Source: Blasia pusilla
Taxonomy: Eukaryota
Assembly (NCBI GenBank): GCA_050084515.1
Contig: CM114271.1
Coordinates: 2,852,001-2,916,000, forward strand
Length of the DNA: 64,000 nt
Reading direction: 5' to 3'
Part shown: one piece after another, positions 4,101-64,000 of the stretch
Position numbering within the stretch: the first letter of the stretch is position 1
Layout: the number at the start of each line of letters is the position of its first letter
Notes under the pieces: model-generated
Databases searched by the model: none
Seen by the model: the letters and a program-made list of their open reading frames with translations, nothing else
Told to the model about the DNA's origin: nothing
Translations under genes and position numbers: made by a program

Positions 4101-4185
4101 CTGCTCTCTTACACCCATTGTGCTCGCAATTCTCCAAGTACGGAGATGCTCCAAGACCACTCCATCGTCGTGAATATCTTGGCCA

Positions 4186-7092
<2,907 letters not shown>

Positions 7093-7197
7093 GGCCACCT
7101 ATCCTCTCCTCATCGGCCTTTGGATCTAAGGACTTGCCATCGAAGTCTCAGCAGTATGGCTCTTCATAGCCAATAAGCCCAAATAGGCTTACGCGTG

Positions 7198-14598: not shown

Positions 14599-15537
14599 AA
14601 CGATGCTCTCTGTATCAGCACAAAACCCAATATCCCCAAATAACTCTCAATACCCAAAATTTCCTAACACGTGGAGGGAAAAAGACTAGAATGGGTAACC
14701 TGAATAAATTTCGATCTCTCCTCAGCAACAGAAAACCTCGACCCCAACTCAATCATGAAGACAAACTCCTCCAAGTAGCATGTCGTACTCCCCTAGTACT
14801 TACGATGCTCAAATCTCCTCCTTGTGCGGTGCGGGTCCAGTGTATGGTGCGGCACTAATGGCACGGAATCGCTACAAATGGCACGGAACTCGAGAATGGG
14901 GTACGGCACTCAATGGCATACCCTCCTCAATAGCAACACACGCTCTGCTCCAATGATGGTGCGGCTCCACGATCGAGATGGTGTGGTGCGGCCACGAGCA
15001 ACATGGCGTGGAAATCGGCGGCGCGTTGCAGCTATGGGCATCACAACACGGTACTCGATCATTGTTGAGCGGCTACCGCACGGTAGCGCGGTGGCTATGG
15101 CAGCTTGCTTAATCAACCACAACTTTGTGCTCCAAACTCAAAAATTGTGCATCGTTTCTTCAGCAACATACACAGCTTCTCAATCTACGACCTCATTAAA
15201 TTGGTTTCTTCATTCAACCTTCCAATAAAAATTGACAGGGATTGTCATGCAGCCCTTCAATGTGCACTCCTACGAAAAATTTGGCAGCGCTTCTACGATG
15301 CCAAATTTGGAAATCCGCCCCCATATTCAATCTTTAAAGCAACTTTGGCAGCGCTTATGCGTGCCACTCTTCCACACAAAAAATCAGCAAAGAAAGAGCA
15401 AAATCAAGTGGCTCTTGCTCCGGTGAGCACTCCTATGAGCCCTTGAATGGGGAACACGGTCCCCAACATGCACCAATAGCGAGTGACTAGTGAGCTCTTC
15501 CATTGAAACTCTCTCACTTACTCATTCTCTCTTTGTC

Positions 15538-16046
15538 AAATCAAGTAGATCTCACATCAATATCTCACACCAAACTCTCTATGGTGTGCACTCTCTCTCA
15601 TGTCAAACCAAACCCACTCTCCTAATAAGAGGCTTGGGTTATACACACAAGGCAAACAAGACCATAGCTCCGCCGCCTCATGCCAAGAGGTTCAACAAAG
15701 AGAGAATGAGCTCTGAAGCTATCTCTCTTGGAGGTATACCCCCTTCCCTCTCCTAAGCTCTCTCCTTGTCAACCTATGCTCGCAGGTCACATCCTTGGCT
15801 CTCGACCTCCTGTAGCAAGTCAAGGGCCACTTCCCAAAAAGAAAAGTCAACTATATTCTAAATGGGAACTGACCCAAAATAATAAGTTTCTATATATGGC
15901 TCCAAATGAGCTAAAACGAAGGGGAAACTTACTCTCTCAGGTTACCCGGGGCCTCAGCAGGTCATCCTTGACCTCTTGAGGCTATCCTCCAACATCTCCA
16001 AAGGGGCTCTACTAGATCGTGCCGATCTATCCTAACAGTCGTGACA
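15538..16046 (-). repeat. Terminal repeat A (5' end) of gypsy copy 1
   Basis: AAATCAAG...TGTCAAACCAAACCCACTCTCCTAAT...CTATCCTAA...GTGACA recurs at 47694 (partial), 57581, 58090 and 58890. Confidence 0.87.
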
Positions 16047-28790: not shown

Positions 28791-30852
28791 GTTCTCACTG
28801 CTAAGAGAGGAGCAATAAAAGGAGAGGAAGAGTGGAAGAGAGGAGAGATGAGAGAGGAAATTCTTGTCAACCCGAAGAGATCCTCTTTTTAAGAGAGCTT
28901 CTTGTGATTTGAAGAGAGTTTCCTATGGATTGAAGAGAGGGAGGAAAATTTTGGAACATATTTTACAATTATGTTCTCTTTTCTTAATCACTCCCAATTT
29001 TTTTCCTCTTCCTCACTATGGCAACCCGTATGAATCCCAGAGATTGCAACATACATGAAACTTTTGTGTATCCAATCATCTCTTGACAGATAGTACAAAT
29101 GTGGAAAAAATCACTTTTTCCATCCAAGGTGTGAAAAAAAAGACCATTTAAGCACATTGATGAAATGAATACTTTGGCATTTCTAAACTACACTCTCACA
29201 CGTGATGTTGCATCCTCAAAGTGGCTTCTTTAGGACACTTGACACTTCTTTCACAGATAAAATTGGTTGGTGGATTCCTATTCCTAGCTCTGAATCTCTA
29301 AAAGCTACAAGTAGAACTTAGTACATGTGCTTACAAGGGAAATACCTTTTGCCACTTCTCTCTCTTTGGACAAACTCATCACAAGAACATGTGGGAAAGC
29401 AACAAATGTGTACAACATAAACCCCAGAAATATTCAAATTCACGGTGTTGTTCCTGACCCAATACATTCTTCCTATTACATTCTCACTATGCAAAACTCT
29501 TGTGGCAATGATCTCCATGTTGGCCTCCCGAGTTGATGCGATTCATTTTGCCCTCTCCACCAATCGCCTACACATTCTATTTCTCTTCACTCCATTTCCT
29601 TAATCGAACAAAAATAGTGGATTGAGATCATTCGCCTTCTTATGATATAAGTTGATATCAATCTTAGATTGGATCCGAAATGCGAATGTCTTTATAATGC
29701 GAATATGTTCCGAACTCCCTCTGTCTACTAGTCTCAACCTTGCATTTGTAAGATTGCCCACTTCTTCCTGGAAATTGGTTCTTGTAGAAATGGGCCAAAT
29801 CGTGGGGATATTCCCTCGAGCTCGAATGGCATGTGGATATGATTTTTTGGATGTGCATGATTCATTTAGGCAGAAGAAGTACTTCAATTGATCCCTTGTC
29901 CTTGTAAACGATCTAGAGTTTTCAGCCCCCATAAGCTTCGCTGTGGTCAGCCTATCCTTGTACAGTTCTTATTCAGAAAAGTGCCGCATGCTCTCCTTAT
30001 TCCATCAAATCCTGTCCTGCAGGTGGATCCACATCTGGGGTAGCTTCAAGAGATATGCTACCTTTTGAGATAACAATCCATTTCTATGACAAGAATGCCA
30101 TATTGTTGAATAGCCCTTGGTATTGGATGATGAGAAGTTCTAAAATAGAGGAATTTGGAAATAAGACATTCATGGATTTTACAAAAGACACTCCAACTCG
30201 AGCTTGGGAGCTATCTAGTGTTTTCGAATATTTGGATGGGGTGATTTCATCATCCACATCAATCACCGGATTGGTTTCTCGATACTAATGCTTAACTTGT
30301 TTGAAATCAAGGTACTTATGTAGTCTTCAAGAGTCTCGCTCAAACTTCTCTACCTCCCTTTGTATGGGATGTCTTGAAACACGCCCACAAATGTCCCCAC
30401 GAATGTAGACATCTCTCTTGAGAAGAGTTCCGCCTACCCACCGCTTGAAGGCTTCAATATATATTTTCTCATCCCCAGATCTTATAGGGCCCTAACATAG
30501 AGTTCATAAATCGAAGGGCATTTTCCCTTGGTTATACCTTTGTTGAGAAATATAGGAGATGTTGTAGATTGTAATATTGCTCTAGCCTGGTTTTGTTGGC
30601 ATGTCTCCAAGAGGGAGATTCTTTGGCATGCTTGTGATGACCTCCAACATGAATGGATATTCTCGGCTCCACTTGTATTTGGGCAAATTAAAGGGTATAT
30701 ATTTCATTAATGTTCAATCCCTACACATGCCAAATTGATAAGTGAGGGAGCATTACAGAACACAGAAGTTCACAATATAGGGATATTGCAACATGTGGGA
30801 ATCCAACGAGTTGAAATATGTTGCAACTTGTATGAATTCGATGGATTGCAGA

Positions 30853-31145
30853 TGTTGTGCGCATACACATTGCTACACAACATACATCGATGTTACTTAA
30901 CATACATACAAATACACACGATCCCATACTCACTCATGGCATCCAAACATTGAGATTGGATCTTACTTTACAAAGTCAGCTATATCAAAAATAGTAACTT
31001 ACCGGATATGTTCCTCAATATGGCTCCAAATGAGTCGAAAGGAAGGTTACCCGTGCCCTCATTAGATCATCCTCGACCTCTTGAGGTTGTCCTCCAATAT
31101 ATCCGAATGCGCTCTTCTCCTTGATGTATCCTAACAAATGTGACA
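30853..31145 (-). mobile_element. Internally deleted solo A-B unit of the DNMT-gypsy family, in the transposase intron
   Basis: Starts TGTTGTGCGCATACAC (repeat B) and ends ATCCTAACAAATGTGACA (repeat A). Confidence 0.8.
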
Positions 31146-31810
31146 GTGAAGAGAAATATGTGCAATCCATCGAATTCATACGAGTTACACGAACATACGT
31201 CGAGAGAATTTTTTCTAACTTTCCAAACTTAACAAGTTGAAAACTCATGCAACTTGTTGGAATCCAACAGGTTACAACACCACACTCCCACAACCTTTAA
31301 TTGCAACCTGTCGATTTCAAACGGTTTGCAAATTGAGGCAACTTATCGGATTGCGACAAGTTGCATATTGATATAACTAGTCAAATTATGACAGGTTGCC
31401 AAACACCAATATTTGCAACCTCTTGGATTCAGACAAGTTGCAACATTATATTTAGACCTACTTTTTCTTGCAACCCGTCAGAGTCAAATAGGTTGCAGAC
31501 CGAGGCAATGTCACGTTTTGACGAGTTTCCAAACACTAATATTTGTAACACATCGGATTCAGATGGGTTCCAACCCAACGGAATCCAACATGTTACACCT
31601 GCGAAATGGAAAGGAGAAAATGTTTTACTCACCTTCCGCATAAACCTTCCCCATTGCCTCATACGAACACTCCACCAAATCAACCAAAAACACAATTCTT
31701 AATATTTCCCCTCAATTGCATGCTTCGCCACCACACATGAAGCTCTTCTTAGTACTCTATGGCTTGTTTCAAGATTTTGTTGTCCTTACAACGTTGTAGT
31801 AGAGCAGGGT

Positions 31811-45420: not shown

Positions 45421-48356
45421 TTCGAGTTCTAGCAGAGGGGACCAGAGGTGATGTTGGTTCGGTCCTTGAGCCGCGTACCATGTACAGCTGTGAGATGGAG
45501 CATATATTCTTAAAGAGTTGTCCCAAGTAAGGAGGAGAATGCTTTGCCGTTGTGTAAGACCTTATTTGTGGAGATACATTTTGACGTGAATTTGACATGA
45601 GTGACTGAAGCAACTCCATTCGCCTGTTCTGGCCACAACAGTGTTGTGGAACTTTGTAAATTTAAGCGCTTTCGTGCGCTACGTAGCAATTTGTATTCGA
45701 CGAAAGTACTACTACGCAGTCTCCGCACACGATATCGACACGGTCTTGAATGGAGCGTGCATATATCACCTACTCTCTACCATGCGTAATGTTCAGATGG
45801 CCGAATGTAAGTTGAATATTCAGGATGTCAACGAGACGCTGACTCTAGATCACAGTTTTGTAAATTCAAAGGAACCGTCTTCCAACCTTTTGCTTGGCTA
45901 CCCGCCTTGGCGCGGCGATCTGTTGGATTCGTATTTGAATGTGTCAATCAACACTCTACAGGGACGTTTAGAGACGAAAAAATGTTTTGCCACCCACAGC
46001 CTGAAAGTCTTCGAATAAGGCATGGATGAATCACAATCCTAAGTCAGCAGTACGCTAGTGACTTGGAAAACTACACCTAGAACCGGAATTTCTCATAGTG
46101 AAGAAGCAGCATAAATTCTCAACTTATTCGAGGACAGTTCCATAGTCAACCGAGGTGAAGCACCGTTCATATCAACTGTGGGAAATGGACATCGCTATTG
46201 GATTCTAACCCATTGTCCAAAATGTTGTGAAACTTGTCTGGAGTCTGCGTTCGGAGACGAATTCATTGTCACAGGATTATTGCTCTACATGAAATCGCTG
46301 CACGAGAGCAATACTAACAAAAATTAACTTTGACTTACATTCTACCATAGCGTCCAGCTTGGCGACGCTGTTAGGATAAGGAATCATATCTCATCTAGAT
46401 TGAGGCACCATTATCGGCGATCCGATCACTGATTTTCTCGAAAGAGGATATTCTCTATTCCGATAGGAGCTAAAGATTTGGCGCGTAGAGGATGAGGCAA
46501 AGGTTGGCGACTGTTTCCCGAAAGTAGGTACACTCCCCTTGTAGCCGGCAGTAGTCATTTTGGTTTCGAAGGTGGTTCACGGGCAGTTTCTCTTCCTTAA
46601 AAAACAAGAAAAAAATAACTATTTTGAGGAGTTTGAAAACCAAACAGGAATTTCGGATCTCTTCAAACTTCTGGGCAGGGGATGAAGTTTGTATCGGTCC
46701 ATATTATCCAAAACGAATCCAAATGGGGCATTTCTACGGTATCCAAAGGTCCAACGTGGAAGATATAGTTTGAGATAGTTATCTCTAGTTCTCATATAGC
46801 CATGGGAAGAACTCTTTCCCCAAAAATAATCTCTCGAGTAACTTTTGACTCGGTTAACAAAGACCAAAATAGGAAATTTGTCAGAAACGATGTTTCTAAT
46901 GCAATGAATCTATCATCGATCTGATCCGAGACCTTGGGACAAAGTTATATCCAAGTAGTCTTTTGATCTTCTATGTGGTCGACGCGGTAGAACTCTACCT
47001 CTCGACTAACTACGATGTTACATATACCATAATACTTTTTTGGATATTTCTTTTCTCATAGAAGTGAAGTCCTTCTTGAAAAGAGAAGTCCTTTGGAGCT
47101 TTGGAAAATAATAAGTTCATGTTTGTTAAGATACGAGTGAAGTTTGTGTATATGGATGTTTGTTTCTATAAGATTGGACCTCTTCTAGCGTGTTTAGGGT
47201 TTAGGGTTAGGATATATACACATCGAGAAAAACACCATTGCATCGTAGAGTTCAACCTCAACTCCCCCTCACTAACCAGCAAAGAGATTCAAACCTTGAA
47301 TTTTGCAGTGGAAGTCTTGGGTCAAGTCTCAAAGACCAAGCTAGCTGCGAGTTCCATAGGCCAGTTCAATAGATGTAAAATGTTGAATAGGTTCAAGTCC
47401 CCTAAAGTATGTTTTTTCTTCTCAAGAAGCCTCTTCCCCAAGCCTTCACCAATCTCCCCAAGTAGTTCATCTAAAAAATGTTCGACCATTAATTTCTCAA
47501 AATGTGTTGAGAATGATGTCACAACTTCGTTAGCCGACAAGTAGACTTCTACCCCGTCGACGACATAGAGAATCAATGGGAGTTTTTGGTGTAATTTTGT
47601 CTTGAGATATCAAACAAAGTTGACGACTAGATTGTTGCATAGGGAACATTTTTAATGGCGATTCCTCTTCTTTGCTATTTCTGGCCAAATGATAAAGAGA
47701 GAATGAGGTCTCAAGCTCCCTCTCCTTGAGGTATACCTCCTTCCTTCTCCCAAGCTCTCTCCCCATTAACCTATGCTCGCAGGTCACCTCCTTGGCTCTT
47801 GACCTGTTGTAGCGGGTCAAGGGCCACTTCCCAAAGTAGAAAGTCAACTCTACCAAACATGGAAACTTACCAAAATAATAAGTTTCTCTATATGGCTCCA
47901 AATGAGCCGAAACGAAGGGCGAACCTGCTCTCTCACGTTCCCTGATACCTCAACAGGTAACCTCGACCTCCTAAGCCTGTCCTCCTCTACTCGCAAAGGC
48001 GCTCTATCTTATCTCTCCAATCTATCCTAAAAAGTCGTGACAACTATCGTGCGCATACACATTGCTACACAATATATATAGATGTTCGACAAACATACAC
48101 ACAAACACACACGATCCCATGCTAACTCATGGCATTCAAACAACGAGACAAGAAGTACCAAAATATCTCCAATCGCCTTCCTAGCTCGTGGTTAGGTCCC
48201 TCTAACTGCAGATAGTCATCTATCTCTACCTACCATGACATACATCTCTTGGACGCTAAGAGAAAAAAGATCGGGTGCTCATATGGCCTCATCGTTACTC
48301 ACCTTCTTGTCATCCATGTCACACACACAAGTCAGAATCTAGAACTACCTACCCTA

Positions 48357-48500
48357 TGTACATTTGGGACACATCCATCGTCCCTTAGGAACCCTAGTGA
48401 GAGGTGGCGTCAGACATGCCATATACCATCCTCTCGAACATCCATCACAAACTAGCATAGTGGGTGCACCACGGGCGGAACCACACAACATACACCGCAA
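48357..48500 (-). pseudogene. PHD finger at the integrase C-terminus, copy 2
   Basis: CMLCGSARGAPTMLVCDGCSRGWYMACLTPPLTRVPKGRWMCPKC. Confidence 0.9.
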
Positions 48501-51500
48501 GCCTGCAGGAACTACTGCTAAGCTCAGATCAACTGTACGGTCAATGTTCGGAAGATGACGTGGCGCACAGTTACGCATATAGTCCTTCCAAACCATACCA
48601 TCACGTCCCTCCAATAAGAGAACCAGGATGACAAAATCTCACGCACCCTCAAGATAGTGCGCCTTGCAGTCACGTTGTGGGTGCCGTCTACTGCAAGTAG
48701 ACAAAGTCTCCCTGATGAATATTCTGGATAATAGGTCGATAACCACCTCCCCGAATAGTCGCATACCTCAACGTATCTTGATGTTGCGCAATCGCCAAGT
48801 TCTCAAAAGCCATGGGCATCACACTCCAAAACAACTCAACCCTTTGAGAACATGCTCGCATCCATACATCAGGGTCATGAAGGTTCAACACCTCACCAAC
48901 ATCTCGACCAATGGCCGCAGGTCATTCCGACTCTCGGCCATAAAGAAGCAAATACGGTGAGAAAGATGCTAAGGATGTCTGCATGTTGAATCTGCATCCC
49001 ATCGCCAACCACAGCAACTAGAGGTCCCAATCTCCTAGGTGACCTCTCTGCAAGCCATAATTGCGGAATCCTCTCTTCATCGTCTCCACAACCCTCTCTG
49101 CTAGTCCATCCGCCACAGGATGATCTCGCGAAGTGGTGCGGTGGTCGATCAGCGCCTGATCACGCAAGGCCTGAAACTCCCCACGAAACTCCGTACCCTA
49201 GTTTGTCAACACCTCAATTGGTGCGCACTAATGACTTAGCACTCGATCTAGGAAGGCATTCGCTACTCCCTTACTTTCTTTGTCAGGCAATGCAACCAAC
49301 TCTATCTATTTCGAGAAGTGCTCAACCATCACCAACACATAACGACTATGGCACTCCGTCAAAGGCAAAGGTCCTACAAAATCCAAACTCCATCTATAAC
49401 CTAAACCCATGATCGAAAGTGGATGCAACTATGGATTTGGAGCATTGAACAATGCTCGGACTCGATCACACACCATGCACCTGGCAACAAACTGCCGAAT
49501 GTCAATCTGCATGCGTCGCCACCAATACTGTATCTAGAGCATGTTGTACGTCCGCTTCACTCCAAAATGACCCAACTCCTCGTGGGCATGAGGCACCAAA
49601 CGTGCTCTCTGCAAAGGATGAGGCACTACATGTACTCTACCATCCTCCCACACTCGCAACACATGTGTCCTCTCCCACCGAAACCGTCTGGCTCACTGTA
49701 GGATCCAATTCCGCTCTCTAGCACCCATTGTGCTCGCGACGCTACCAATACGCAAGTACTCCAAGACCACTCCATTGTCTTGGCCACATGTCGTCTCCTC
49801 ACGGACCTCTGGATCTAAGGACTCTCCATCAGACCTCGCCATCGAAGTCTCAGCTTTCTAGCTCTCCATAGCCTACAAGCCCAAATAGGCTGACGTGTGC
49901 CATCCTGGCGCCAACTTCTCATCACTCTCACCATGCCAACGAGCTCCACTCGCATCTCGCTGACTCGAACATGGGTTATGGCTGAAACTATTGGCATCCT
50001 CGTTGAGCGTCCCAGTCTATGCACCACTTGGAAGTCATACTCTTGCAACAAAAGAGCCCACCTCGCAAGCTTTCTGTAAGCTTGTCAGAATCCATCAACC
50101 ACTTAAGTGGTTGATGATTAGTAATGATGGTAAAGGGGTTTCGGAATAGATAACATCTAAAATGTGCGATAGCCCACACCGTAGCCAAGCACTCACCCTC
50201 ATACACGCTATATTTTTCCTCTACAGCGTTGTTCAATCGACTAGCGTAAGCCACCACGAATTCCCTATCATCATTGTCATGCTAGGTGTGCATTGCTCCA
50301 AGCCCCAACATGCTCCAATTGCTATGCAATTGGAAAGGGCGCCCCTTGATCGGTCTCCTCAATATAGGCGCGGACATCAATCTGTCCTTGAGCAGCTGAA
50401 ATGCTCTCTCTTGCTCATCCCCTCAATGCCACTCCTGATCCATCTTGGTCAACAAGGTTAGCGGCTTCGCAATGAAACTAGAATCCTTGACGTATCGTCG
50501 ATAGAAGTTTTCCAATCCCATGAATGCACAAACTCCACTTACACCTGTAGGGCGTGAAATAGCCTCTACCTTTATCTGCTGCATACCAAGGACCCCTGGA
50601 TATATAGTATGACCCAAGTATTCAACTTGGTCGTAGAAGAACTTGCACTTGCTTGGATGTAGCTTCAGCCCATGTAACTACAATCGTCAAAACACCTCCT
50701 CTAGATGTCGCTCATGCTCCTCAACCGTGGCGCTAAAGACAGCGATGTCATCAATATAACACCTAGCAAACTCCAAACTTGCCAAGATCCTATCCATTAC
50801 CCTCTGAAACTCAGCCGGGGCATTCTTTAACCCGAATGGTAAGAACCACCACTAGTACAAACAATCCTTCCGGTGAGGATCGATGCCCCAAAATGCCGTC
50901 TTCTGCCTGTCCTCCAATCTGATAGGCAGCTGATGGTATCCGGCTCGTAAATCCAATGAATTGAAGACCTTTGCATGCCCAATCGCATCAAAGATCTCCT
51001 CAGGGGTGGGCATGGCATACCTATTGGACTTTGTCTGCCGATTGATAGGTCCATAATCTCCACACATCCGCCTATCCGTCCAATTTCCATGCACATCCTT
51101 CTTGGCGGGCATGATAGTGGCAGATGCATCCTCTCCATCCGACATCTCCACTAGTCCTGGTCCAACCAAGTCATGCTCCTACTATGAATCAAAGCCCTCT
51201 CCATGTTAGTGTACCTGTAGGGTCGTCAAAAGATCGGTGTGTCACTTGAAAACTCAATGCGGATCCCTGGACCCTTTAGCGTACCCAAATCCTACATGCT
51301 AAATGCAAAACAACTCCTATAACTCCTCAGGAACGGATGTATCCAGCGCCCCTCTCCTCCTATCAACTTAGGGCCCATGTCTAGCTCCCAAGTCTCCATT
51401 GTGACTATGGTAGGACTCTCTGGCGTGGGTGCAGGTGGTTGTTATGGTGCAACCCTGTCTCAGACAACACAACTCGACTGCTCTCTCCTGCAACCAACGT

Positions 51501-51719
51501 ACTGCAAAATTTGTCTCCATGTGTAGTACCCGCAAAGACGCTCAATGTTGTGGCTACCATCTCCTGGAGTACCTGCAAAACATCCCAAGAATTCCAAGGG
51601 TTTCTCTCCCGATCACCCCTAGTGTGTTGATCTCCTCGGGTCTCGCCCCCAGCCACTACCTCAACGGTCTCGGTAAGCATGGGGCTCACCAATACAATAG
51701 TTGTGATGTGTCGTATCCT

Positions 51720-52700
51720 CAAACGACGCTGCTCAGCTACTCCTAAGCTGAAAATCCATATCAAGCAGTTCACGTCCATCACCTGACCCAAGATATGACG
51801 TCGTGGTGCCTCTAATAGCAACAATTGTGCTGTCACTCCTGTGGGGAAATCCCATCGCTCGCTCTCGCTCATTGACATAGGGCCCCACCAACCTCTGTAC
51901 CTGGTCATCCCAAACAAGCCAGGTCCGGCCTCCTTGAATGCATATGAAGCGGGAAAACTCACAAATATAGGAAAGGCTGCCCGTGGCATGCCAATCTTGT
52001 TGACCACAATCAACGGCAGTCGATCATTGTGCCTCAGTGCCTATGATTGACGGCCCGGATCCAATATGGAATCCACCAACAACTAGGAGGGGCGCTCCAC
52101 TCGCGTATATGCCCTCCGCAACACCTCGTGTAGGACCAAGTTGGTCCACCAAAGACATGGGCGGTGTGCTCTAGAACCTACACTCACCTTATCTAACAAT
52201 ATTGTTGGGCCAATCCATGCGTGCACATGATGTGCACTCATCACCACGCGAGACCTCGAATTGCCCAAAATTGGCACATTCTCCAGAATGTATGCTAGAG
52301 AACGAGATTGATGCTCCTGCAAGTGTCGGAAAATCCGCATCATCTCCCAAAAAAACTTGGACAGCTTGTCAACTAACCTACTACCTTGTACAACACTCGA
52401 TTGGCCCTAACACGACCAACTAGCAATGACCAGATCTATGGCCCCTACCCGCTCCAAGTCCTACGCCCCCAACAATGAAATGTCCCCCGCTAGAGAGCTC
52501 TGGTATCCTTGGACAGTGGACTGAGACAACTAGTTGGGAAAAAGGAGGCGTAACAGCGCCACATGGTAAAGTGAAGCGCGCCTCACAACATCATCAATCT
52601 CCGCATACAAGTACTCCTCTATGCGTACTCCTGCCTGCAAAAAAACAGCTAACCTAGTGCTAATCCCTCCAAAGAGATCCAACACCCAAATACCCTCCTC
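51720..52700 (-). pseudogene. C5 DNA methyltransferase domain, copy 2
   Basis: VLDLFGGIS..YLYAEID; IDLVIASWSC*GQS; YILENVPILG; GSRAHRPCLWWTNL; FPTGVTA; RRHILGQVMDVNCL. Confidence 0.88.
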
Positions 52701-55700
52701 TAGGATGCACCACACAATCGGGGTGGTTTCCAAAGGGGTCATAATAGCACTCCTTGCTACCTTGCGTTCCTCTGACCCGTCACGCTCTGGTGCAAATATC
52801 TCGCTCCACGTGGTCTGCACATGCTCAATGGCTAAGCGTTGAAGCTCCTCAATTGAGCCCCAAAGCGGCACCTCTCCTCCATGGACTGATGCGGATACCA
52901 TGACACTCCTCTCCATAGAAATGTCAAGAACGGGAGTGTCCTTTCCATGGACGTGTCCCTCAATCAAATCACTAGGCCAAGTGATGGCACTGCTAATTGC
53001 TACTAAGGTTGCAATCTCTCCTGACCGGATCTCTATCATTGCATCTGTGAATCAAACGGGTAATGAGCTAAGGCGCCCAGCACCTGACTGCCATCTTGGT
53101 CTGTAAGATGGCAGTGAGTAATCCAAGGAAAGCCCCATGGGATACAACACTGCTCCATCAACCAAGACATCGAAGGACTCTGCATTAGTCACTATTGCCT
53201 TGGCTCGCACCATGGACTCATCTGTAGGATGTCCCTGGCGAATCCTTAGCACAACCTCCTGTCGGGTAATATACTATGTGGTACTCGCTCCATCCAAGGA
53301 TGTTTGTATCCGGAATGGACAACGCTCCACATCGGCCTTTGTCACGTCCAAACCTCTGAATGCCGCTTTCCCCAACACCAAGGGTTGCACCCCTAAATCC
53401 AAAAGACGAGCTACGGACTAAAAGCTCTACTTCCTAGACTCACAAACTGGAAGACCTCGCCCCGGTTATCCAAAAAAATAACACTAGAAGAAGCCATGGC
53501 ACGCTCTATTGCGGGTATCTCCGCCATCCTAGCAACCGCAGCCTACCATGAATCTGACGTGGACGGACCGAGCATAAGCTCCAAGAGTAGGTCCATCACC
53601 TCCTATGCAATCACCTTTGAATGTGATGCAAGAACTCCAACTCCACGCTCACACAACGTAGCGGCCAGCCAGAAAACCTCGGCGGGTGTACCTCCCAACG
53701 TCATAACATCGGAAGCAAAAAATAAAGGAGGGAAGAACACAACGGTGGCCGCCCCCAACAACGTGCTCGACATATGCCATTCCTAAGCATCAACAATAGG
53801 AGCAACACACTCGCTTCTCCCATCGTCCTCCGTGCCTGCACACCAACAATATCACCAAATCTCTGAGAACTCTGATTAGGACCGATCGATGGGATTCTCA
53901 TCGCCTCAGACAACGTGAAGGACTGAGGAATCCTGGTCTGTTTCCTAGCTTCTCCTCGCTATGGATCCAACTCTGCGGTTGCTCCACGCGTAACAACTGC
54001 GGAGGCCTCCATCTGGGCAACCCCACACATCGAACCATAATCCTCCATTCTTTTGGCGTCTCCATAAGACATCGATGCCACGGATCCGGCATCAAGTAAC
54101 CTCAATGCCATAGCGGCATCTGATGTATCTGAGCAACCATCCCAACCTCATGCCCGGTGTCTTCCTCGACGCGTCTAGGTGGTGGGACTCTACCTCCTCC
54201 ACGCGCAACTCCACCACCCCCTGGAGCAAATCCAACTCTTTGTCCCCCAACGGTATCACCTGGTGCATGACCTCTAGGCCCACTTGGACCGAAAACTTGC
54301 TCTGGTGCCCTCTCTGGCTCTCAATCCAAACGTAACTCATGGTGCAAGATAAAACATCTGGCGCGCGTGTGACCATACCTCTGAAAATAGTCACACCGAT
54401 AACCTCCTGGTGCAACACCATCTCCTCCTCCATGCTGAGGCACGCAACGATGATTGTGACCAGTGCAATCGCGCTGATGATGGGCTCCACCACATGACCA
54501 ACAAGTAATCATAGGTGGCAGCTGCTGAGCCACATATGAAGGCGCAGGTTTTTGTGGCACGACCTCTCGGTATCCTTTGTAAGCTTGTGATGCCATAGAC
54601 CTATCTCGGAATCCACGTTGCTGCATTGGTGGTGTAGGCAATCGTGACTTCTCTCCCCCACAACCCATGGTGGCTACGGTCTCCTCCGCCATGTTGCGCT
54701 CAATGTTCTCGGCGGTCCTAAAAGCATCTCTCAACGTAGGGGAGGTGTTCATAAGAAGCAACCCCTCTTGCACACATGTCCAGTCGAGTATCGTGTACCA
54801 TATCTAGATAGTCATATTCTGTCACCCCTTGAATGACGTTAATCAATCGGCGCAAGCGAGTGTAGGCCTCACGCAAACTCTAACTCAGGTGCCTCTGGAA
54901 GTCATGGATGCTCCGTAACTTCTCCGTCCGCACCCCTTATTAGCTCGCCCTCAACTCAGCCAAGAACTCAACCAAGGGATTGAACCTAGGACGAACTCGA
55001 CTGAACGATGCAACTGCTCTAGTACGAGTCACCCCTCCTACAACATCAATGGTGGAGGAACCCTCTTCTGACTCCTCCTCCTTATCTGGAAACGGCTCAA
55101 TCCATGACACATAGTGCCCATGGGTCATAGTAGAGTCTTCAGGCCTCAATCTCATTGGCATATCTTTGCGAGAATCCATGGTAATTGTCCATGGATGCCC
55201 CCTCTAAATACTGGAACATTCCATTCCATGCTGTAAATGGGTTGAACTCTCTAAAGTTCCTAGCCCGCAGTGAGTCACACCAACTCTTAAACTCCACAAT
55301 GAAGTCGTGTAACTCTTTAGTGCCTATAGCACTCGAAAACCTACGCGGTCCTCTACCCGGGTCGTCCATCTCGTACGCCTAATTGGTAGGACCACTAAAT
55401 GTGTGCGGTGATCCAGTAACAACCTCCTCTACACTCTCCCCCTTGTCTGAAGATGACACAAAAGGAGATCGAGGTGGTCTCTCACGTGGAGACTCTTGAA
55501 ACCTCGCACCACTCCGGGTAAACCCTCTAGAGCTACTCTCAAGTCCACCACCTCGCCTCTCAAAGTCCCGGAAGGACGCGGTGATATCGATGACCCTTGT
55601 GCCCGTCTCACACGATCACTCTCAACCTTCCGAGTAATCACGCAATCACCCAATCTAACATGCGGTACTCAAGCGACACTCTCTCATTGAGACATGTGAT

Positions 55701-57452
55701 GTGCGGAAACAAGCGGCGTTGTGCGGAAAATTGTCTTCTGTCCTATCATCTCATGGACAGGGCACACCCTCAACTTTGGATATCCCACACAAGTCTATGT
55801 CCCCTAACCCATACATCAATGATGCTCTCAGCATCAGGCCGAAACCCAATATCCCAAATAACTGCCCAATACCCAGAAATCCCTAACACGTGTAGGGCAA
55901 AAGACCAGAATGATAACCTAACAACAAGTTTCGATGTTGCGCCTCAGCAACTTAAAAACCTCGACCCCAACTCGGTCGTGAAGACAACTCCTCCAAGCAG
56001 CAAGTCGTACTCCTCTAGTATTGACGATGCTCTAATCTCCTCAATGTGCGGTGCGAGTCCAGCAGTACGGTGCGGCACTCGCGACACGGAACCGCTACAA
56101 ACAGCACGGCACTCGGTAATAGGTTGCAAGACTCAGCGGAATGCCCTCCTCAACAACAAACACAATCTGCTCCTCAATGATGGTGTAGCTCGGCGATTGA
56201 GATGATGCAATGCGGCCACAAGCGACACGGCGCGGCAATCAGCGGCGCGTTGCGGCTATGGGCATCACGGCATGGTACTCGATCGTCCTTGAGCGGCTAC
56301 AAATCACGGCATAAAAAAGCGGATGGAACACTACGACCCCACAATCAAAAAATAAGAATGGTCGGCCGTAAACACAGGCAACCGCGGCGGTCTAGGATAG
56401 AGATTCAGATGTCCGGCTCTACGGGCGGCAGTAACACTGGGTCGGACGGAGCAGCGCACGGTTGCACGGCGGCTAACTATTTTTTCGGCACTAGAAGGCC
56501 CTGAAGCGTTGACAGACCACACAACATACAACCGCGGTACCAAGTGCATAGCCGGTTTGCGCGTCTCCGGGACAGTTGGCTAAGACGTAGTAGGACAGAT
56601 GTTATCCCCCGCCAAATTATTTTATATTTTTTTAAATATTTTTTTAAACTAGAATAATCCCCCGGGAAAATTGGATCTCCACTATCTTTCCTTACTTGAC
56701 AGCCCCCTGCTTGACAGGCCTGCAAATTGAATGCCTTACCACAAATCCCTCCTAAGATTGAGGGTCAACACCCCCCAAAAATGGGATCTACTCACCCTAC
56801 CTCCAAATAGCTGAATTCACTTCTCCTATCCACCAAGTAAACTGATTTTTTTTAACCTCTCAAGAAAGAATTTCTACCCAAAAATTTCAAATTTTCACTC
56901 ACACCTTGGAACGGTGGCTATGGCAACCCAACGAAAATGATCATAACTCCGTGGTCCAATCTCCAAATTGTGCACTTTTTCTTCAACAGCCTACACCACT
57001 TCCTAATCTATGACCTCCTCAATTAGCTTCTCCATTTGATTTTTCACCAAAAACTGACGATGACTGTCGTGCAACCCAAAGTCTCTTTCTCCTACGCAAA
57101 ATTTGGGAGCGCTTCCGCGCTGATTTCTCCCAAAGAAAATGTAAGACCTATGAAAATACAAATCAGCAAGCTACACGGTGCTCTCAAGAGCATCTGCATG
57201 GGGCAACTTGTCCCCATACTCAATTCTTATAAAAAATTGGGCAGCGCTTCCGCGCACCACTCTTCCACACAAAAAATCGGCGAAGGAAACATCAAAAGTG
57301 AGCGGCTCTTGCTCCAGTGAGCACTCCCATGAACCGCTGAATGGAAAATACGATCCCCAACTTGCAAAACCAGCGAGTGACTAGCGAGATCCCCCATGAA
57401 GCTCTCTCACTCAGCATTATCTCTTTGAAAATCAAGTAGATCCAATCTCTCT

Positions 57453-58089
57453 TGTCGTGCGCATACACATTGCTACACAACATACATCGCTGTCACCAAA
57501 CACACATACAAACACGCACGATCCCATGCTAAATCATGGCATCCAAACAAGGAGACAAGAAATATCAAAATATCTCCAATAAAATAAAATCCAATCTCTC
57601 TCACAACACCATAGTTCTCACATGTGTGCACTCTCACATATCTCTCTCAATGTCAAACCAAACCCACTCTTCTAATGAGAGGTTTGGATTACACTCACAA
57701 GGCAAGGGACCATAACTCCGCCGCCTCGCGCCAAGAGGTTCAACAAAGAGAGAATGAGCTCTCAAGCTCTCTCTCCTTGAGGTATACCCCTCCCCTCTCC
57801 CAAACTCTCTCCATGTTAATATATGCTCCCAATTCTACCTTGGCTCTTGACCTGATGTAGGAGGTCAAGAGCCACTTACCAAAAATAGAAAGGCGACCAT
57901 ATGCTCAAAATGGTACTTATCTAAAATAGTAAGTTTCTCAATATGGTTCCAAATGAGCTCGAAGGGAAAATCTGCTCTCTCAAGTTTCGTGGGGCCTCAA
58001 TAGGTCATCCTCAACCTCTTGAGTCTGTCCTCCACTACTCGCGAAGACGCTCTACTAGATCTCACCGATCTATCCTAAAAGACATGACA
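57453..58089 (-). mobile_element. Solo A-B unit of the DNMT-gypsy family inserted into repeat A1 of copy 2
   Basis: TGTCG...TGACA flanked by CTCT/CTCT; B 57453-57580, A 57581-58089; removing it restores ccaatctctctcaacacc. Confidence 0.8.
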
Positions 58090-58778
58090 CTCTCAACACC
58101 ATAACTCTCAAATGTGTGCACTCTTACATGTCTCTCTCAATGTCAAATCAAATCCACTCTCCTAATAAGAGTCTTGGGTTACACTCCCAAGGCAAGCAAG
58201 ACCATAGCTGCGCCACCTCATGTCAAGAGGTTCAACAAAGAGAGAATAAGCTCTCAAGCTTTGTCTCCTTGAGGTATATCCCCTTCCCTCTCCCAAGGTA
58301 TTTCCTCAATAACCTATGCTTGCAGGTCACCTCCTTGGCTCTTGACCAGTTATAGCGGGTCAAAGGCCTCTTCCCAAAGTGGAAAGTCAACTCTACCAAA
58401 CATGGAAACTTACCCAAAATAGCAAGTTTCTCTATATGGCTCCAAATGAGCCGAAACGACGGGTGAACCTGCTCTCTAAGGTTTCCCAAGACCTCACTAG
58501 GTCATCCTCGACCTCTTGAGCTTGTCTTCCTCTACTTGCGGAGGCACACTACGAGTTCTCTCCGATCTACCCTAAAAAATCGTGACAAAGTCAATGATCA
58601 TATGGTAATATGTACACACATGTTACCGTTTGGATGGCTATTTTGGGGGGAAGAGCCTTTTGGCTCCTACCAAGGCTATAAGAGAGGGAGAGATGGCTTT
58701 CCCTGACCATATTTCTCATGTTGGGCCTTAGGAGCACCTCTCTTGCATGTGGATGTAGGAACTAGGGTGCTAGCATCT

Positions 58779-61700
58779 TGTCGTGTGCATACACATCACT
58801 GTCATTAAATGCACACACAAACACACACGATCCCATACTAACTCATAGCATCAACACATCGAGATGATAAGTACCAAAATATTTCCAATAAATCAAGTGA
58901 TACTCTCAACTACAATGTCTCCACGATGCACACAACTCTATCTCTCATTCTCATGTCAAACCAAGCCCACTCTCCTAATGAGAGACTTGGATTACACACA
59001 TAACGCAAGCATGACCATAGCTTTGCCGCCTCATGTCAATAGGTTCAATAAAAAGAGAATGAGCTCTAAAGTTCCCTCTCTTTGGGTATACCCCCTTACC
59101 TCGCCCAAACTCTCTCCACGGTAACCTATGCTCGCAGGTCACCTCCTTGGCTCTTGGTTTGATGTAGGAGTTCAGGTCACACTTCCCAAAATAGAAAGTC
59201 AACAATATTCAAAATGATAATATATCTGAAATAGTAAGTTTCTCTATACGGCTCCAAATGAGGTGAAATGAAGGGGAAACCTACTCTCTCACATTACACG
59301 TGGCCTAAGCAAGTCATCATCGACCTCTTGAGGATGTCCTCTAGTATCCCCGAAGGTGCTTTACTAGATCTCGTCGATCTATCCTAAAAGATGTGACAAT
59401 TTTCATGCATATATACACCGCTACACAACATTCACCAAATGCACACACAAACACACATGGCATTCACACATCAAGGCAATAAGTACCAAAATATCTCCAA
59501 TCGCCCTCTAGCTAGTGGTTAGGTCCCTCTAACTGCACATAGCCATCTATCCCTACCTACCATGACATACATCTCTATGACGCTAAGAATAAATTTTCGG
59601 GTGCTCATGTAACCCCATCGTTAGTCGCCTCCTTGTCATCCATATCATAGACACAAGTCAAAATCTAGAACTGCATAGTATCTACTTTATGTACATGTAG
59701 GCACATCCATTGTCCCCGAGGAACCCTAGTGCGAGGTTCCATCATACATGCCATTCCCATCCTCTCGAACATCTATCACAAACTAGCATAGTGGTTGCAC
59801 CATAGGCCGAACCACACAAAATATAGGGCAAGCCTGTAGGAGCTCATATCAATTTTACTGTAAATGTTAGGAAGGTAACGTGGCGCATAATTACGCACAT
59901 GGTCCTTCCAAACTATATCATCGCATCCCTCCAATTAATAAGAGAACATTGGATGGCAAAACATTACGCACTTTCAAGATAGTGCGTCTTGCAATCATAT
60001 CCAACATTGTGAGTGGTGTCTGCTGCAAGTAGACATAGTCTCCTTGATGAAACCTCTGGATAATCTTTCGATAACCACATCCCCCAATAGTCACATACCT
60101 CAAAGTATCCCAATGTTGTGCAATTGCCAAGTTCTCAAACGCCATGGGTATCACTCTTCAAAACAACGGAACCCTCTGAGAACATGCTTGCATTCATACA
60201 TTAAGGTCATCAAGGTTCAATACCTCGCCAACATCTCGATAAATGGCTGTAGGTAAATCAGCCTCTTAGCCATAAAGCATCAAGTACGGTGGGAAAGACG
60301 CTAAGGATGCATGCTTGCTAAATCTATATCCCATCGCCAACCACGGAAATTGGAGATCGCAATCTCCTACGTGACCTTTTTGCAAGCCAAACTTGCGTGA
60401 ACCTCTCTTCACGGCTTGCACAACCCTCTCTGCAGGTCCATCCATCTCATGATGATCTCGCGAAGTGGTGTAGTGGTCAACCAGCGTCTGATCACTCAAG
60501 GCCTGAAACTCCCCACAAAACTTTGTATCCTGGTCTATCAACACCTCAACTGGTGCATCATAATGACTCAACATATGATCACTACACTTCTCCCTCACTC
60601 GCCTTGTCAGGAAATGCAACCAAATCTATCCACTTTGAGAAGTACTCGACCATCACCAATACATAACAACTATGGTGCTATGTCAAAGATTCAGGTCTTG
60701 CAAAATCCAAACTTCATCTATAACCTAAATTCATAATCAGCAGTAGGTGCAACTGTAGAGCAAGAGCATTGAATGATGCCCAGACCCAATCACACGCCAT
60801 GCAGCTAGCAACAAATTGTTGAACATCAGTCTGCAAGCCTCGCCACCAATACCGTATCTACAACAAGTTGGACATCTGATTGACTCCAAAGTGACCTAAC
60901 TCCTCGTGGGCATGTTGCACCAAACATGCTCTTTGCCAAGGATGAGGCACTACATGTACTCTACCACCTCCCAAACTTGCAATACATGTGTCCCCTCATA
61001 CCAAAACCGTCTAGCTTGATGTAGGCTCCGATCACGCTCTCTAGCACCCTTTGTGCTCGCGTCGCTGCCAATAGGTAGGTACTCCAAGACTACTCCATCC
61101 TCGTGAATATCTTGGCCATGTGTCACCTCTTGACCAACCTTTGGATCTAAGGACTCTCCATCAGACCTCTCCATCAAAGTCTCAGCATCCTAAATGCTCC
61201 AAGCCTCAACATGCTCAAATATGTATGCAACTCAAAAGGATTCCCCTTGATCTGTCGCGACCCTCATAACCAAACAAACACCAAATAGGCGCTCAAACAG
61301 AACATCAAAACTCTAGTGGACTCACGCTACGATGATCACGCTTTGGAGAGGCTTTTGGAAAGGTCTCTTGGAAAAGTCCAAGAGACAAAACGCAGAAGAG
61401 TTGTGAGTTTCATGCGTTTGTGGTCGCTACCAGGAAACCTTGACCAAAGGCGTTTGGTCCAAGTTTCCTGGCGCTCTTATTTTTCTCAAATGCATCTAAG
61501 GGCTAAACGTTGTGTTCCAAAACACAGTCAAAATCCCCAAATATTAGTCGTGTTCCAAAATTGGTTCTCACCTCTTCGGCAACCAACCTTCCAAGACTCA
61601 ACTCATCTCAAGTCTTAAAACCCTTGGCATAACGTCGATAGAAGCTCCCCAATCCCATGAATGTACAAACTCGACTCACATATGTAGGGCGTGGAACGCG

Positions 61701-64000
61701 TGAGATAGCCTCTACGTTCTTCTGCTGAACATCAAGGCTACTTGGGTATATATATATTGTATGATCCAAGTACTCAATCTGGTCGTAGAAGAACTTGCAC
61801 AAGCCTGGATGTACCTTCAGCCCATGTAAGAACAATCGTCAAAACACCTCCTCCTGATGTCCTTCATGCTCCTCAACCGTGATTCTAAAGACTAAGATGT
61901 CATTAATATAATACCTAGCAAAATACATACCCGCCAAGATCCGTTCCATGACCCTCTAAAATTCTTCCGGGGAGTTCTTTAACCCAGATGGGAAGAACCG
62001 CCATTCGTACAAATAATCCTTTCCGTGAGGATTGATGTCCCAAAATGTCATCTTTTGCCTGTCTTTCAATCTAATAAGCAACTGATAATATCCAGCTCAA
62101 AGATTGAATGAACTTAAGATCTTTGCATGCCCAATAGCATCAAAGATCTCCTCAAGAGTAGGCATAGCATACCTATTGGACTTCATTTGCCAATGGATAG
62201 GTCGGTATTCTCCACACATCTGCCTATCCGTCCAGAAGCCGTGCACATCCTTCTAGGCGGGCATGAAAGTAGCAGATGCATACTCTCCATGCAACATCTC
62301 CACTAGTCCTACTCCAACCAAGTCCTGGCTCTTACTCTCAATCAGGGCCCTCTCCATATCGGTGTACCTGTAGGATCGTCGAAAGATCGGCGGATTCTTG
62401 GACCCTTCAACATACCCAAATCATGCATGCTAAATGAAAAACAACTAGCTCCTATAACTTCTAAGGAACTAGTGTATCCAACGCTGCTCTCCTCTTGTCA
62501 ACTTAAGCCCCATATTTGGCTCTCAAGTCTCCATTGTGACTATGGTAAGACTCTCACGTGTGGGTATCGATAGTTGCTATGGTGCAACCCCATCTCGGAC
62601 AACAAAACTTGAATACTCACCTACAACCAACTCCAAACTCTCATCTCCTTGACCTCTAGTATGAGGAACCACGCTCTATGCTATGGCTACCATCTCCCGG
62701 CATACCTGAAAAAAATCCCAAGAAGTCCAAGGGTATCTCTCTCAATTACCATTGATATGTCGATCTCCTCAGATCTCGCCCCCAACCATTTCTTGAACCA
62801 TCTTGGTAGGCATGGGCTCACCAACGCAACAACTATGATCAATTGTGACATCATCAACGTGGCTCAGCTACTCCTAAGCTAATGATCCATGTGAAGAAGT
62901 TTAGGTCCATCGCCTAACCCAAGACATAATGTCATCCCAAACCAAGCTAGTACCGACCTTCTTATATGCATAGAAAGGCGGAAAAACTCACAAAAGTGGG
63001 AAAGGCTGCCCGTGGCATGCCAATCCTATTAACCATAGTCAACGACGGTCGATCATCATCCCTCATTTCTTGTGATCGATGACTTGGATCTAGAATAGAA
63101 TCCACCAACAAATGGAAGGGGCTTTCCACTCTTGCATACGCCCTCCGCAACACTTCATGTGGCACCGAGTTGGTCCACCATAGACATCGGAAATATGCTC
63201 ATAAACCTACATTTTCCGCATCCAAAAATATTGTTGGGCCGATCCAGGCTCACATCTTATGTGCACTTATCACCACCCGTAACCTCGAGTTGCCCAAAAT
63301 TGGCACATTCTCCAAAATTTATGTTGGAGAACATGATTGATGTTCTTGCAAGTGTCGCAAGATCCGCATCATCTCCCAAAATAATCCACCTACCACTACC
63401 TTATCCATCACTTGATTGGCCTTGACATGGCCAACCAGCAATGGCCAAATCAATGGTCTCTACCCGCTCCAAGTCTTGCACCCCCATCAACAAAATGTCC
63501 CTCTGTAGGAAACTCTCGTACCATTATACGCCGGATGTAGACAACAAGTCAAGAAAACGGAAGCATAATTGCACCATATGTCGAAGTGAAATTTGTCTTG
63601 TTACGTCATCAAGCTCCACATACAAGTACTGATGCATACACACTCCTGCCTCCAAAACAACAACCAACCAGGTGCCGATCCCTCCAAAGAGATCCAACAC
63701 TCCAATATCCTCCTCTAGGATGCGCCACACTCTCTACCTCCTCGACTTACCAAGTGACAAACCTCTCCCCGGATATCCAACAAAACAATACCCGGAAAAA
63801 CCATGACACGCTCTATCGCGGGTCTGGCGGGCATCTCCACCATCCTAGCAGTTGTAACCTACCATGAATCTGAGGTGGATGGCCCGAGCATAGGCTCCAC
63901 GAGTAGGTCTATCACGTCCTCTGCAACCATCTCTCAACATGACAAAGGAACACCAACTCCACGCTCGCATGGCATAGCGGCCATACAAAAAATCCCCATG
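58779..64000 (-). mobile_element. DNMT-carrying gypsy copy 3 (3' part: internal-B-A-B); runs off the window
   Basis: B2 58779-58889, A2 58890-59398, B1 59401-59501, PHD/INT 59690-61000, RT 61620-62360, DNMT 62880-63710; RH and PR regions deleted. Confidence 0.88.
62880..63710 (-). pseudogene. C5 DNA methyltransferase domain, copy 3 (catalytic motif intact)
   Basis: VLDLFGGIGT; YLYVELD; IDLAIAGWPCQGQS (about 63410-63455); ILENVPILG; WWTNSVP; motif IX region deleted. Confidence 0.88.

Follow-up and report, generated by a model that had tools for sequence, protein, structure and literature searches.

Direct repeats split in the order A1-internal-B1-A2-B2 have been held to be a hallmark of retroelements that encode a tyrosine recombinase, and a stretch of the Blasia pusilla genome raises the question of how such repeats came to flank an element with a classical integrase. 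The window analysed here (the whole stretch of 64,000 nucleotides at positions 2,852,001 to 2,916,000 of contig CM114271.1, assembly GCA_050084515.1) contains one such element in the form of three old copies and two solo units, all on the minus strand, as found by self-comparison and by direct reading of that strand. An earlier note, made from the letters of the window without database searches, had described the split layout and suggested that the element replicates in a non-canonical way. Here, we report that the split layout is a property of the family and not a local accident, that the element belongs to the Ty3/gypsy type, and that the signals for reverse transcription are placed in a manner that suggests how the layout may be produced.

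The repeats consist of two modules. Module A (~510 bp) begins with TGTCAC and ends with ...CTTGATTT, and module B (~100-128 bp) begins with ATTGGAGATATTTTGG and ends with ...CACGACA (coordinates written x->y are read along the minus strand, in element orientation). The copies show either the layout A1-internal-B1-2 nt-A2-B2 (hereafter form I; nt, nucleotides) or the layout A-internal-B (form II), and the A and B matches within the window, with BLAST E-values of 1e-74 to 1e-119, are far beyond chance. The 57-59 kb region is the meeting point of two of the old copies and one solo unit. Copy 3, the 5' half of which lies outside the window, enters with the 3' part of its internal region (59502-64000, minus strand, continuing past the window edge), followed by B1 (59401-59501), a spacer in CA-NN-TG configuration (59399-59400, plus strand AT), A2 (58890-59398, with the TGTCAC start at 59398) and the terminal B2 (58779-58889, with the ...CACGACA end at 58779), all on the minus strand. 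Copy 2 begins, on the same strand, with the main part of its A1 (58090-58587), which is interrupted by a solo A-B unit (57453-58089; A 58089->57581, B 57580->57453) and resumes past this insertion with its last 24 nt (57429-57452). Its internal region (48174-57428) is full of stop codons, and its 3' repeats (47694-48173) comprise B1 (48173->48045), the spacer (48043-48044, plus strand AC) and an A2 (48042->47694) that breaks off after ~350 nt. Copy 1 (16046->2441), of form II, has A at 16046->15537 and B at 2568->2441 with nothing beyond B; the second solo A-B unit (30853-31145, minus strand) has a large internal deletion in A. Self-comparison and direct reading bear out every structural statement of the earlier note on this layout, and the junctions with GTGACA-NN that it had placed at 48037-48050 and 59393-59406 are exact.

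The window copies are mutually ~76-85% identical and rich in stop codons, as judged from self-comparison and lists of open reading frames (ORFs). The closest pair of A modules is A1 of copy 2 and its own truncated A2, with 86.0% identity versus 72-81% for the other 14 pairs, as is expected if both were made together. Target duplications are weaker here than had been implied: the solo unit at 57453-58089 has AGAG on both sides (four of four bases), yet lies in AG sequence of low complexity; the flanks of copy 1 are TCGT/CCGT (three of four), and those of the solo unit at 30853-31145 are TCAC/TCTG (two of four).

Taken by themselves, these copies might have a more ordinary history, in which a conventional gypsy element with A-B long terminal repeats (LTRs) acquired the present appearance through nested insertions, deletions and unequal recombination. 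The copies are old (~80% identical), nested repeats abound in the window, one solo unit truly sits inside the A module of another copy, and A-internal-B and solo A-B can arise when B1 recombines with B2 or A1 with A2. This explanation is weighed here against reads from the host and against independent loci.

Reads from ~1% of the whole-genome sequencing (WGS) run X11 and from three RNA runs (X14, X15 and X16) were mapped to 56500-60500 at a likeness of at least 80%; the joints discussed here are the 15 best supported among 279, each with at least 36 reads. Run X11 gave 649 reads (555+94) joining the internal end to the start of B, 246 reads (226+20) joining the end of A to the internal region, and 722 reads, over five nearly identical joints, in which the end of B is followed by two nucleotides and the start of A. 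The spacer between B and A was 2 nt in all 525 reads for which letters were listed (in element orientation, AC 268, GC 99, GT 94 and AT 64), and the 15 letters at the joint of A with the internal region, listed in 132 X11 reads, equal the junction of copy 1. The joints of a canonical element, internal end to A start and B end to internal region, were not among the 15 joints listed, which sets a bound and is not proof of absence. The internal parts had a depth of ~1,400-2,200, and A and B one of several thousand. In RNA reads of the element, the first mate lay mainly on the plus strand, the pattern that RNA of the minus (sense) strand gives in most stranded libraries; sense reads crossed B-NN-A in all three RNA runs (76 in X14, 120 in X15 and 87 in X16), and the joint of the internal region with B1 was likewise crossed (main joint 57580->59504; 44, 87 and 40 reads, respectively).

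Independent loci give the same picture. Eighty metagenome loci were retrieved with an alignment of relatives bearing a DNA methyltransferase (DNMT) and annotated by self-comparison and with A and B probes; duplicates were removed (L062=L063, L040=L041, L053=L055), and 3' ends were counted if at least 450 bp followed the first B (n=17). The full A1-internal-B1-NN-A2-B2 layout is present in L041, representing a first clade with an A of 340 bp, a B of 113 bp and a DNMT that is 78% identical to the related protein P0001, and in L052, L053 and L062, representing a second (A ~290 bp, B 176 bp; DNMT 36-38% identical to P0001). In these complete form I loci, A1 and A2 are 85-92% identical and B1 and B2 are 92-95% identical. 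Eight 3' ends are of form I, with B-NN-A-B (L007, L025, L039, L041, L052, L053, L058 and L062), and nine are of form II, with B followed by unrelated flank (L012, L017, L019, L022, L048, L066, L067, L073 and L080); at L008, the contig ends within A2, and L033 and L034 have a deletion spanning the joint. The joint of A with B is precise in 9/9 related 3' ends (eight distinct insertions, given that L062=L063), and the spacer is 2 nt at all ten intact joints (nine distinct insertions; GC five times, AC four times and AT once). A short palindrome, GACA-GC-TGTC, stands at 5/10 related joints; an extended palindrome was considered and dropped, as its 16-nt version in L041 is probably the result of CpG decay and only GACA-GC-TGTC is general.

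At the 5' ends, a lone A starting with TGTCATG and preceded by unrelated flank was found in 23/23 loci (21 distinct insertions); B was found neither upstream of A1 nor between A and the internal region at any of these 23 ends. Thus, two complete LTRs of the gypsy kind are not seen: the 5' end is a lone A in two window copies and in all 23 loci, and the 3' end is B-NN-A-B or B. The outer ends are TGTCA...CGACA (TG...CA), and perfect 4-bp target duplications flank four of the seven complete elements, two of form I (L041 AAGG, L052 GGTC) and two of form II (L022 TACA, L080 TTGA), whereas L062 and L012 match at three of four bases and L053 has no duplication; such ends, with target duplications of 4-5 bp, are those of Ty3/gypsy elements.

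The tabulation of repeat order, spacer and duplications over many copies that the earlier note had suggested therefore yields two forms, one spacer length and frequent duplications. The same layout with the same 2-nt spacing in the 722 reads and at the ten joints of two diverged clades, which come from other sources, and the lack of A-B before the internal region at all 23 ends, contradict an ordinary gypsy element rearranged by chance; a gap that is constant at 2 nt throughout the family does not stem from independent nested insertions. As shown below, the purine tract and the primer site also flank B-NN-A, not A-B, and we regard this explanation as very improbable. That the family is an integrase element with split repeats we hold with high confidence. 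Neither of the two outcomes that the earlier note had named as contrary to its view, a complete A-B repeat at most 5' ends or a varying gap between B and A, was observed, and its interpretation is in the main correct.

What the element encodes bears on its class. Pfam scans of the window were made on stop-free ORF pieces and returned RT_RNaseH at 101.2 bits, RVT_1 at 35.4, PHD at 40.3 and, weakly, rve at 21.2. On the minus strand, copy 1 carries reverse transcriptase (RT) at 7934-8161, RNase H at 7201-7617, an rve fragment at 3588-3845 and a PHD finger at 2773-3033; copy 2 carries a DNMT-like segment at 51408-52406, RT at 50426-51178, RNase H at 49991-50281 and a PHD finger at 48357-48638; and copy 3 has an integrase-core-like fragment at 60269-60625, with DDE-type motifs by eye and no Pfam match. 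The segment between protease and RT contains the motifs ENVPILG and ERAMGFP. The ORF at 51408-52040, which covers the latter motif, is 47% identical to P0001 (E 7e-30), and P0001 matches PF00145 (C5 DNA methylase) at 31.9 bits (cut-off 22); the C5 DNA methyltransferase of the window is shown only through this match, the DNMT-like fragments of the degenerate window copies having no Pfam or PDB match of their own (PDB sequence searches with two DNMT-like fragments gave noise only).

A search with P0001 returned 30 longer relatives, including Marchantia polymorpha proteins (58-68% identical to P0001) and one from Sphagnum fallax, these two species being the sources of the nearest named protein relatives. 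In two metagenome polyproteins from this search, P0029 and P0030, RVT_1, RT_RNaseH, DNA_methylase, Integrase_H2C2, rve and PHD occur in one protein. The locus L052, which has the split-repeat layout, encodes DNMT, RT, RNase H, H2C2 (36.3 bits), rve and PHD in a near-open frame with in-frame stops; from L052 and related loci, it follows that split layout, integrase and target duplications co-occur in single elements. The claim that the element encodes a DDE integrase, weakly founded in the window, is upheld in same-layout relatives, in which rve scores above threshold (48.5 bits in L052, 40.1 in P0029 and 36.7 in P0030). The order RT, RNase H and then DDE integrase (H2C2 and rve) is that of Ty3/gypsy Pol, and the element is of Ty3/gypsy type, with gag, protease, C5 DNA methyltransferase, RT, RNase H, DDE integrase and PHD finger. 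Neither the methyltransferase nor the PHD finger had been recognized in the earlier note, nor had the precedent of KnitGypsy-Dnmt3, discussed below.

Some observations on these proteins may be added. The position of the DNMT varies: it precedes RT in the window, in the Marchantia proteins and in L052, and in P0029 and P0030 it follows RNase H and precedes the integrase. P0030 also has a weak, below-threshold G-patch match. The gene models P0002-P0017 (Marchantia polymorpha) and P0012 (Sphagnum fallax), labelled 'hypothetical' or 'uncharacterized', are pieces of retrotransposon polyprotein. A further relative, L047 (46% identity), has a near-open frame of 2,416 codons, followed by ~1.1 kb of sequence in which there is no direct repeat. 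At L031, a direct pair of 787 bp with 94% identity (1394-2180/8441-9225) lies beside the DNMT match and looks like the LTRs of a nested canonical element.

The repeat order alone would invite classification among the tyrosine-recombinase retroelements (the PAT, Ngaro and DIRS group), on the assumption that the recombinase was overlooked and the integrase is a passenger. Split direct repeats are described as the hallmark of PAT, Ngaro and VIPER (PMC4157794), the order A1-internal-B1-A2-B2 with B1 directly abutting A2 is shared with PAT-like, Ngaro, TOC1 and VIPER elements (PMC4157794, PMC7192593), and DIRS elements with a DNMT3 domain are described in dinoflagellates (PMC5890265). Scans of 30 window ORF pieces, of six relatives and of nine ORFs from L041 and L052 found no tyrosine recombinase (PF00589), however, and the domain lists precomputed for the 30 relatives have none either; RNase H is followed in frame by Integrase_H2C2 and rve. 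PAT, Ngaro and VIPER encode a tyrosine recombinase, whereas the Blasia family has a DDE integrase with H2C2, TG...CA ends and 4-bp target duplications. PAT-like, Ngaro, TOC1 and VIPER elements are not known to leave a target duplication. We consider membership of this group extremely improbable.

Signals for reverse transcription provide the next step of the argument. Directly upstream of B1 in copy 3 lies a purine-rich tract (CTAGAGGGCG, 59502-59512, minus strand), a candidate primer site for the plus strand, with homologous tracts on the same strand at 2569-2579 in copy 1 (CTAGGGGGGTG, then ATTGG) and at 48174-48184 in copy 2. A G-rich run of purines of this kind ends immediately before B1 in all three copies of the window and at 12 of 14 related loci, the two exceptions being internally deleted; the sequences are CTAGGGGGGCGAG followed by TTGTGG in clade 1 and TCTGGGGGGGG followed by ATACATG in clade 2. 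There is no purine tract upstream of A2.

After A1, no primer site of the TGG type is present in the window copies or the related loci, in line with the earlier note; the tRNA-primed arrangement of canonical gypsy elements is thus not seen, nor does A-B followed by such a site occur at any of the 23 5' ends. Instead, the internal region opens with 9-16 nt that are reverse-complementary to a part of A lying 26-33 nt downstream of a TATA or TATA-like box, and the longest complementarity between A and the first 20 internal nucleotides begins at internal nucleotide 1-3. In copy 1 (minus strand), the segment in A is CTCATTCTCTCTTTGT (15695-15710), 29 nt past a TATA-like GTATAC and the predicted 5' end of the transcript, and it pairs with the predicted primer-binding site ACAAAGAGAGAATGAG (15521-15536), the first 16 internal nucleotides. 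Clade 1 pairs CTCAAAGAAC(TATGTT) with (AACATA)GTTCTTTGAG, and clade 2 pairs TCTAGAAAAACT with AGTTTTTCTAGA. The complementarity is 12-16 nt long in L037, L041, L052, L053, L065, L069, L076, L080 and window copy 1, and when A was shuffled, the observed length was reached by at most two of 500 shuffles in 11/19 elements. Among the three lineages, the pairing sequences are unrelated and the complementarity is kept; in clade 2, all seven elements retain a helix of 15 bp, in which L065 has one compensatory change and L062 one broken pair.

We predict from these alignments that the first 9-16 nt after A1 are a self-priming signature like that of Tf1. The complementarity supports the earlier suggestion of tRNA-independent replication and makes such replication very probable. 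The purine tract, the TATA box and the self-complementary site bracket B-NN-A, not A-B, whereas the ends used for integration are the start of A (TGTC) and the end of B (GACA), with 4-bp duplications. Priming of the minus strand at the start of A2, with B as U5, was also considered and ranked low because, around B-NN-A, the purine tract and the self-complementary site already make up a full set of conventional signals. In clade 2, a small hairpin immediately past A1 was weighed and dropped, as it is not conserved in L065. Separately, the sequence ATAATAAG (L052:5870-5885; alignment columns 42-50) occurs in five of seven clade 2 elements, and its core AATAAG in six of seven; AATAAG, ~45 nt past the predicted transcript start, is a candidate poly(A) signal that would give an R of ~60-70 nt. 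ARAGORN found no tRNA genes in 25 long loci.

These positions suggest the following mechanism. Transcription would start in A1, and the RNA would run through B1-NN-A2; its 5' end would fold back onto the site just after A1 and prime the minus strand, as in Tf1, and the purine tract would prime the plus strand at B1. The repeat unit made by reverse transcriptase (U3-R-U5) would then be B-NN-A, and the primary complementary DNA (cDNA) would be [B-NN-A]-internal-[B-NN-A]. The integrase would act not on the tips of this cDNA but on the internal CA-NN-TG joint between B and A. If both joints of the linear cDNA were nicked, or a one-repeat circle were opened, A-internal-B would result; if an end-joined form (a two-repeat circle or the product of an end-to-end template jump) were opened at its upstream joint, A-internal-B-NN-A-B would result; and if both joints of the end-joined form were cut, an A-B unit with integrase-type ends would be released, which may explain solo units with duplications. 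Form I alone would keep a 3' R and would hence be the sole replicating master. The genomic copy would, in this case, be a circular permutation of the reverse-transcribed form and would, by virtue of this, mimic the split repeats of tyrosine-recombinase elements. The earlier note had taken solo A-B and A-internal-B as the expected products of recombination; both forms are present, but A-internal-B may not be a recombination product only.

A parallel is offered by the junction of retroviral two-LTR circles, at which, as here, the end of B and the start of A meet as ...CA-NN-TG... in a short palindrome. The retroviral junction differs in having 4 nt between CA and TG, versus 2 nt here, and in arising after reverse transcription, whereas here the junction is a heritable part of every copy that would be competent to replicate. 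Retroviral circles are regarded as dead ends, and integrase has been reported to cut two-LTR circle junctions in vitro.

The whole of this explanation, that is, self-primed B-NN-A cDNA opened at the internal joint, is in our view probable, and its particular step, the opening of an end-joined cDNA at that joint, is rather less assured and falls a little short of an even call. Several points weigh against it. The circle, the end-joined cDNA, the cleavage by integrase at the internal joint and the RNA ends are all deduced from sequence. RNA depth through A shows no clear step. Only 15 of the 279 read joints are shown, and missing junction types are bounded only. The complementarity is weak in 8/19 elements (reached by 7-354 of 500 shuffles), all of them old copies, among them window copy 2, in which it is 8 nt long (27 of 500 shuffles). 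The helices that close the folds from the predicted start to the site measure 15, 20 and 20 bp (z = -4.8, -3.5 and -5.2 for the folds), but the fold ranges were picked from the complementarity, which in part builds these helices in. If a symmetrical circle with two joints were opened at random, A-B-NN-A-internal-B should arise as frequently as form I; this arrangement was found at 0/23 5' ends (21 insertions), for which the chance is ~2e-4 if the three forms are equally frequent. The missing form could be lost faster by recombination between its close A copies. Finally, a templated origin fits the precise joint of A with B (9/9) at least as well as ligation does.

Such a templated origin is the substance of the most serious rival, in which ends are restored as in DIRS elements, no circle is formed and a linear A-int-B-NN-A-B cDNA is inserted by integrase in the ordinary way. 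The transcript would lack the start of A1 and the end of B2, and B1-NN-A2 would template both termini through template switches, in the manner of the internal complementary region of DIRS-1. The layout is the same as the A1-B1-A2-B2 repeats described for PAT and Ngaro (PMC4157794), and the DIRS-1 region was demonstrated to be essential (PMC7192593). Also in its favour, RNA reads span B-NN-A, the A to B joint is precise at the 3' ends of all eight distinct insertions, and the lack of A-B-NN-A-int-B is expected if reverse transcription sets the ends. Yet with a primer site after A1 and a purine tract before B1, we found no standard series of strand transfers that copies the end of A onto the start of B, unless minus strands also start past A2; no second primer site was found. 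Nor does templating alone account for form II, which has perfect 4-bp duplications and is as common as form I (nine versus eight distinct 3' ends). We judge this alternative unlikely, if far from negligible, and prefer the permuted cDNA opened at its internal joint.

The family fits neither of the two classes with which it was compared, having no detected tyrosine recombinase and lacking the two LTRs and the tRNA-primer site of canonical gypsy elements. Its nearest described counterpart is KnitGypsy-Dnmt3 of Klebsormidium nitens, for which the legend of Fig. 4c gives a DIRS-like repeat order with gypsy domains (de Mendoza et al. 2018, PMC5890265). Both have a gypsy-type Pol with an in-frame DNMT and DIRS-like A-coding-B-A-B repeats; the host is a different one, and the likeness is drawn from the published description, not from sequence comparison (PMC5890265). 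The main text of that paper, taken without its supplements, does not mention primer binding, self-priming, polypurine, target site or circular, and since these terms are absent, that main text contains no permuted-LTR reading, no 2-nt CA-NN-TG joint, no 4-bp duplications and no self-priming signature (PMC5890265). In the literature located on KnitGypsy-Dnmt3 or Gypsy-DNMT3, which consists of this paper and a citing preprint of 2026 on adenine methyltransferases, the preprint refers to the element as 'streptophytes (Gypsy-DNMT3)' and gives no repeat layout; PMC11982613 has nothing on repeat layout. The main text of a plant-wide LTR survey (PMC6317226) does not mention PHD, methyltransferase or Marchantia.

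The bare layout thus has one precedent, the mechanism being that proposed here from the positions of the signals. To this precedent are added evidence that the layout belongs to the whole family, the joint fixed at 2 nt, the 4-bp duplications and the finding that A-internal-B copies are as abundant as form I, and further the position of the purine tract, the self-priming signature conserved through covariation and the permuted-LTR reading. Priming from a site that pairs with the beginning of the element's own RNA, rather than with a tRNA, is described for Tf1/sushi, Tcn1 and TAR (PMC6317226) and is only predicted here; those elements have two complete LTRs and, in the gypsy members, a chromodomain, whereas here the repeats are permuted and a PHD finger is present.

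Split direct repeats, held as a hallmark of tyrosine recombinases, accordingly occur in an abundant family with a classical integrase and target duplications, which argues that the repeat layout reflects how the cDNA is opened, not the class of the inserting enzyme. With this family, one can test whether an integrase acts in vivo on a junction that is internal or of the circle type, and whether reverse transcription is self-primed in plant elements beyond the Tcn1 and TAR lineages. Tools that seek two matching LTRs and a tRNA primer site will miss or misjoin such elements, and an element with its own DNA methyltransferase and a histone-reading PHD finger bears on the interplay of transposons and host silencing. 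More tentatively, and with somewhat less than even confidence, we suggest a streptophyte-wide lineage with DDE integrase that passes obligately through end-joined or circular cDNA and whose integrase uses as its attachment site a built-in sequence resembling an LTR-circle junction (GACA-NN-TGTC). If that were true, split repeats would be a general signature of opening a two-repeat form internally, whichever enzyme cuts; LTR elements, DIRS/Ngaro and pararetroviruses would be linked mechanistically; and A-internal-B copies and solo A-B units with duplications would be direct products of integration, not scars of recombination.

Other features of the window are minor. Its surroundings are eukaryotic and repeat-rich, with no clear host gene, and searches of the window found no Rfam families and, with ARAGORN, no tRNA genes. 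Copy 1 is interrupted by a foreign insertion of ~2.9 kb (4172-7093), a segment that is absent from copy 2 and holds a long (CT)n/(TC)n run at ~6700-7000. The deleted solo unit (window 30800-31200) is framed by inverted repeats of 21 nt, with GTATGAATTCGATGGATTGCA on the upstream side and the reverse complement on the downstream side, and the unit at 30853-31145 appears to have landed within a palindromic element or one resembling a miniature inverted-repeat transposable element (MITE). The 190 bp between copies 3 and 2 (58589-58778) are not single-copy (WGS depth ~1,545 at 80% likeness), and their RNA reads have the first mate mainly on the minus strand (19-23 versus 4-8), opposite to the element; this segment is another repeat, transcribed from the opposite strand.

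Differences between reads and window at 56500-60500 comprised 402 C>T and 334 G>A changes, with 43-194 for each of the other ten types, an excess that is expected from the decay of methylated cytosines in an old, silenced repeat. Other repeat pairs in the window are 20429-22147/43966-45705, 17984-19264/31810-33094 and 33094-34887/42099-43888 (inverted). Among them is a 1.7-kb direct pair (90% identity) whose members are separated by 23.5 kb and may be LTRs belonging to a large nested element.

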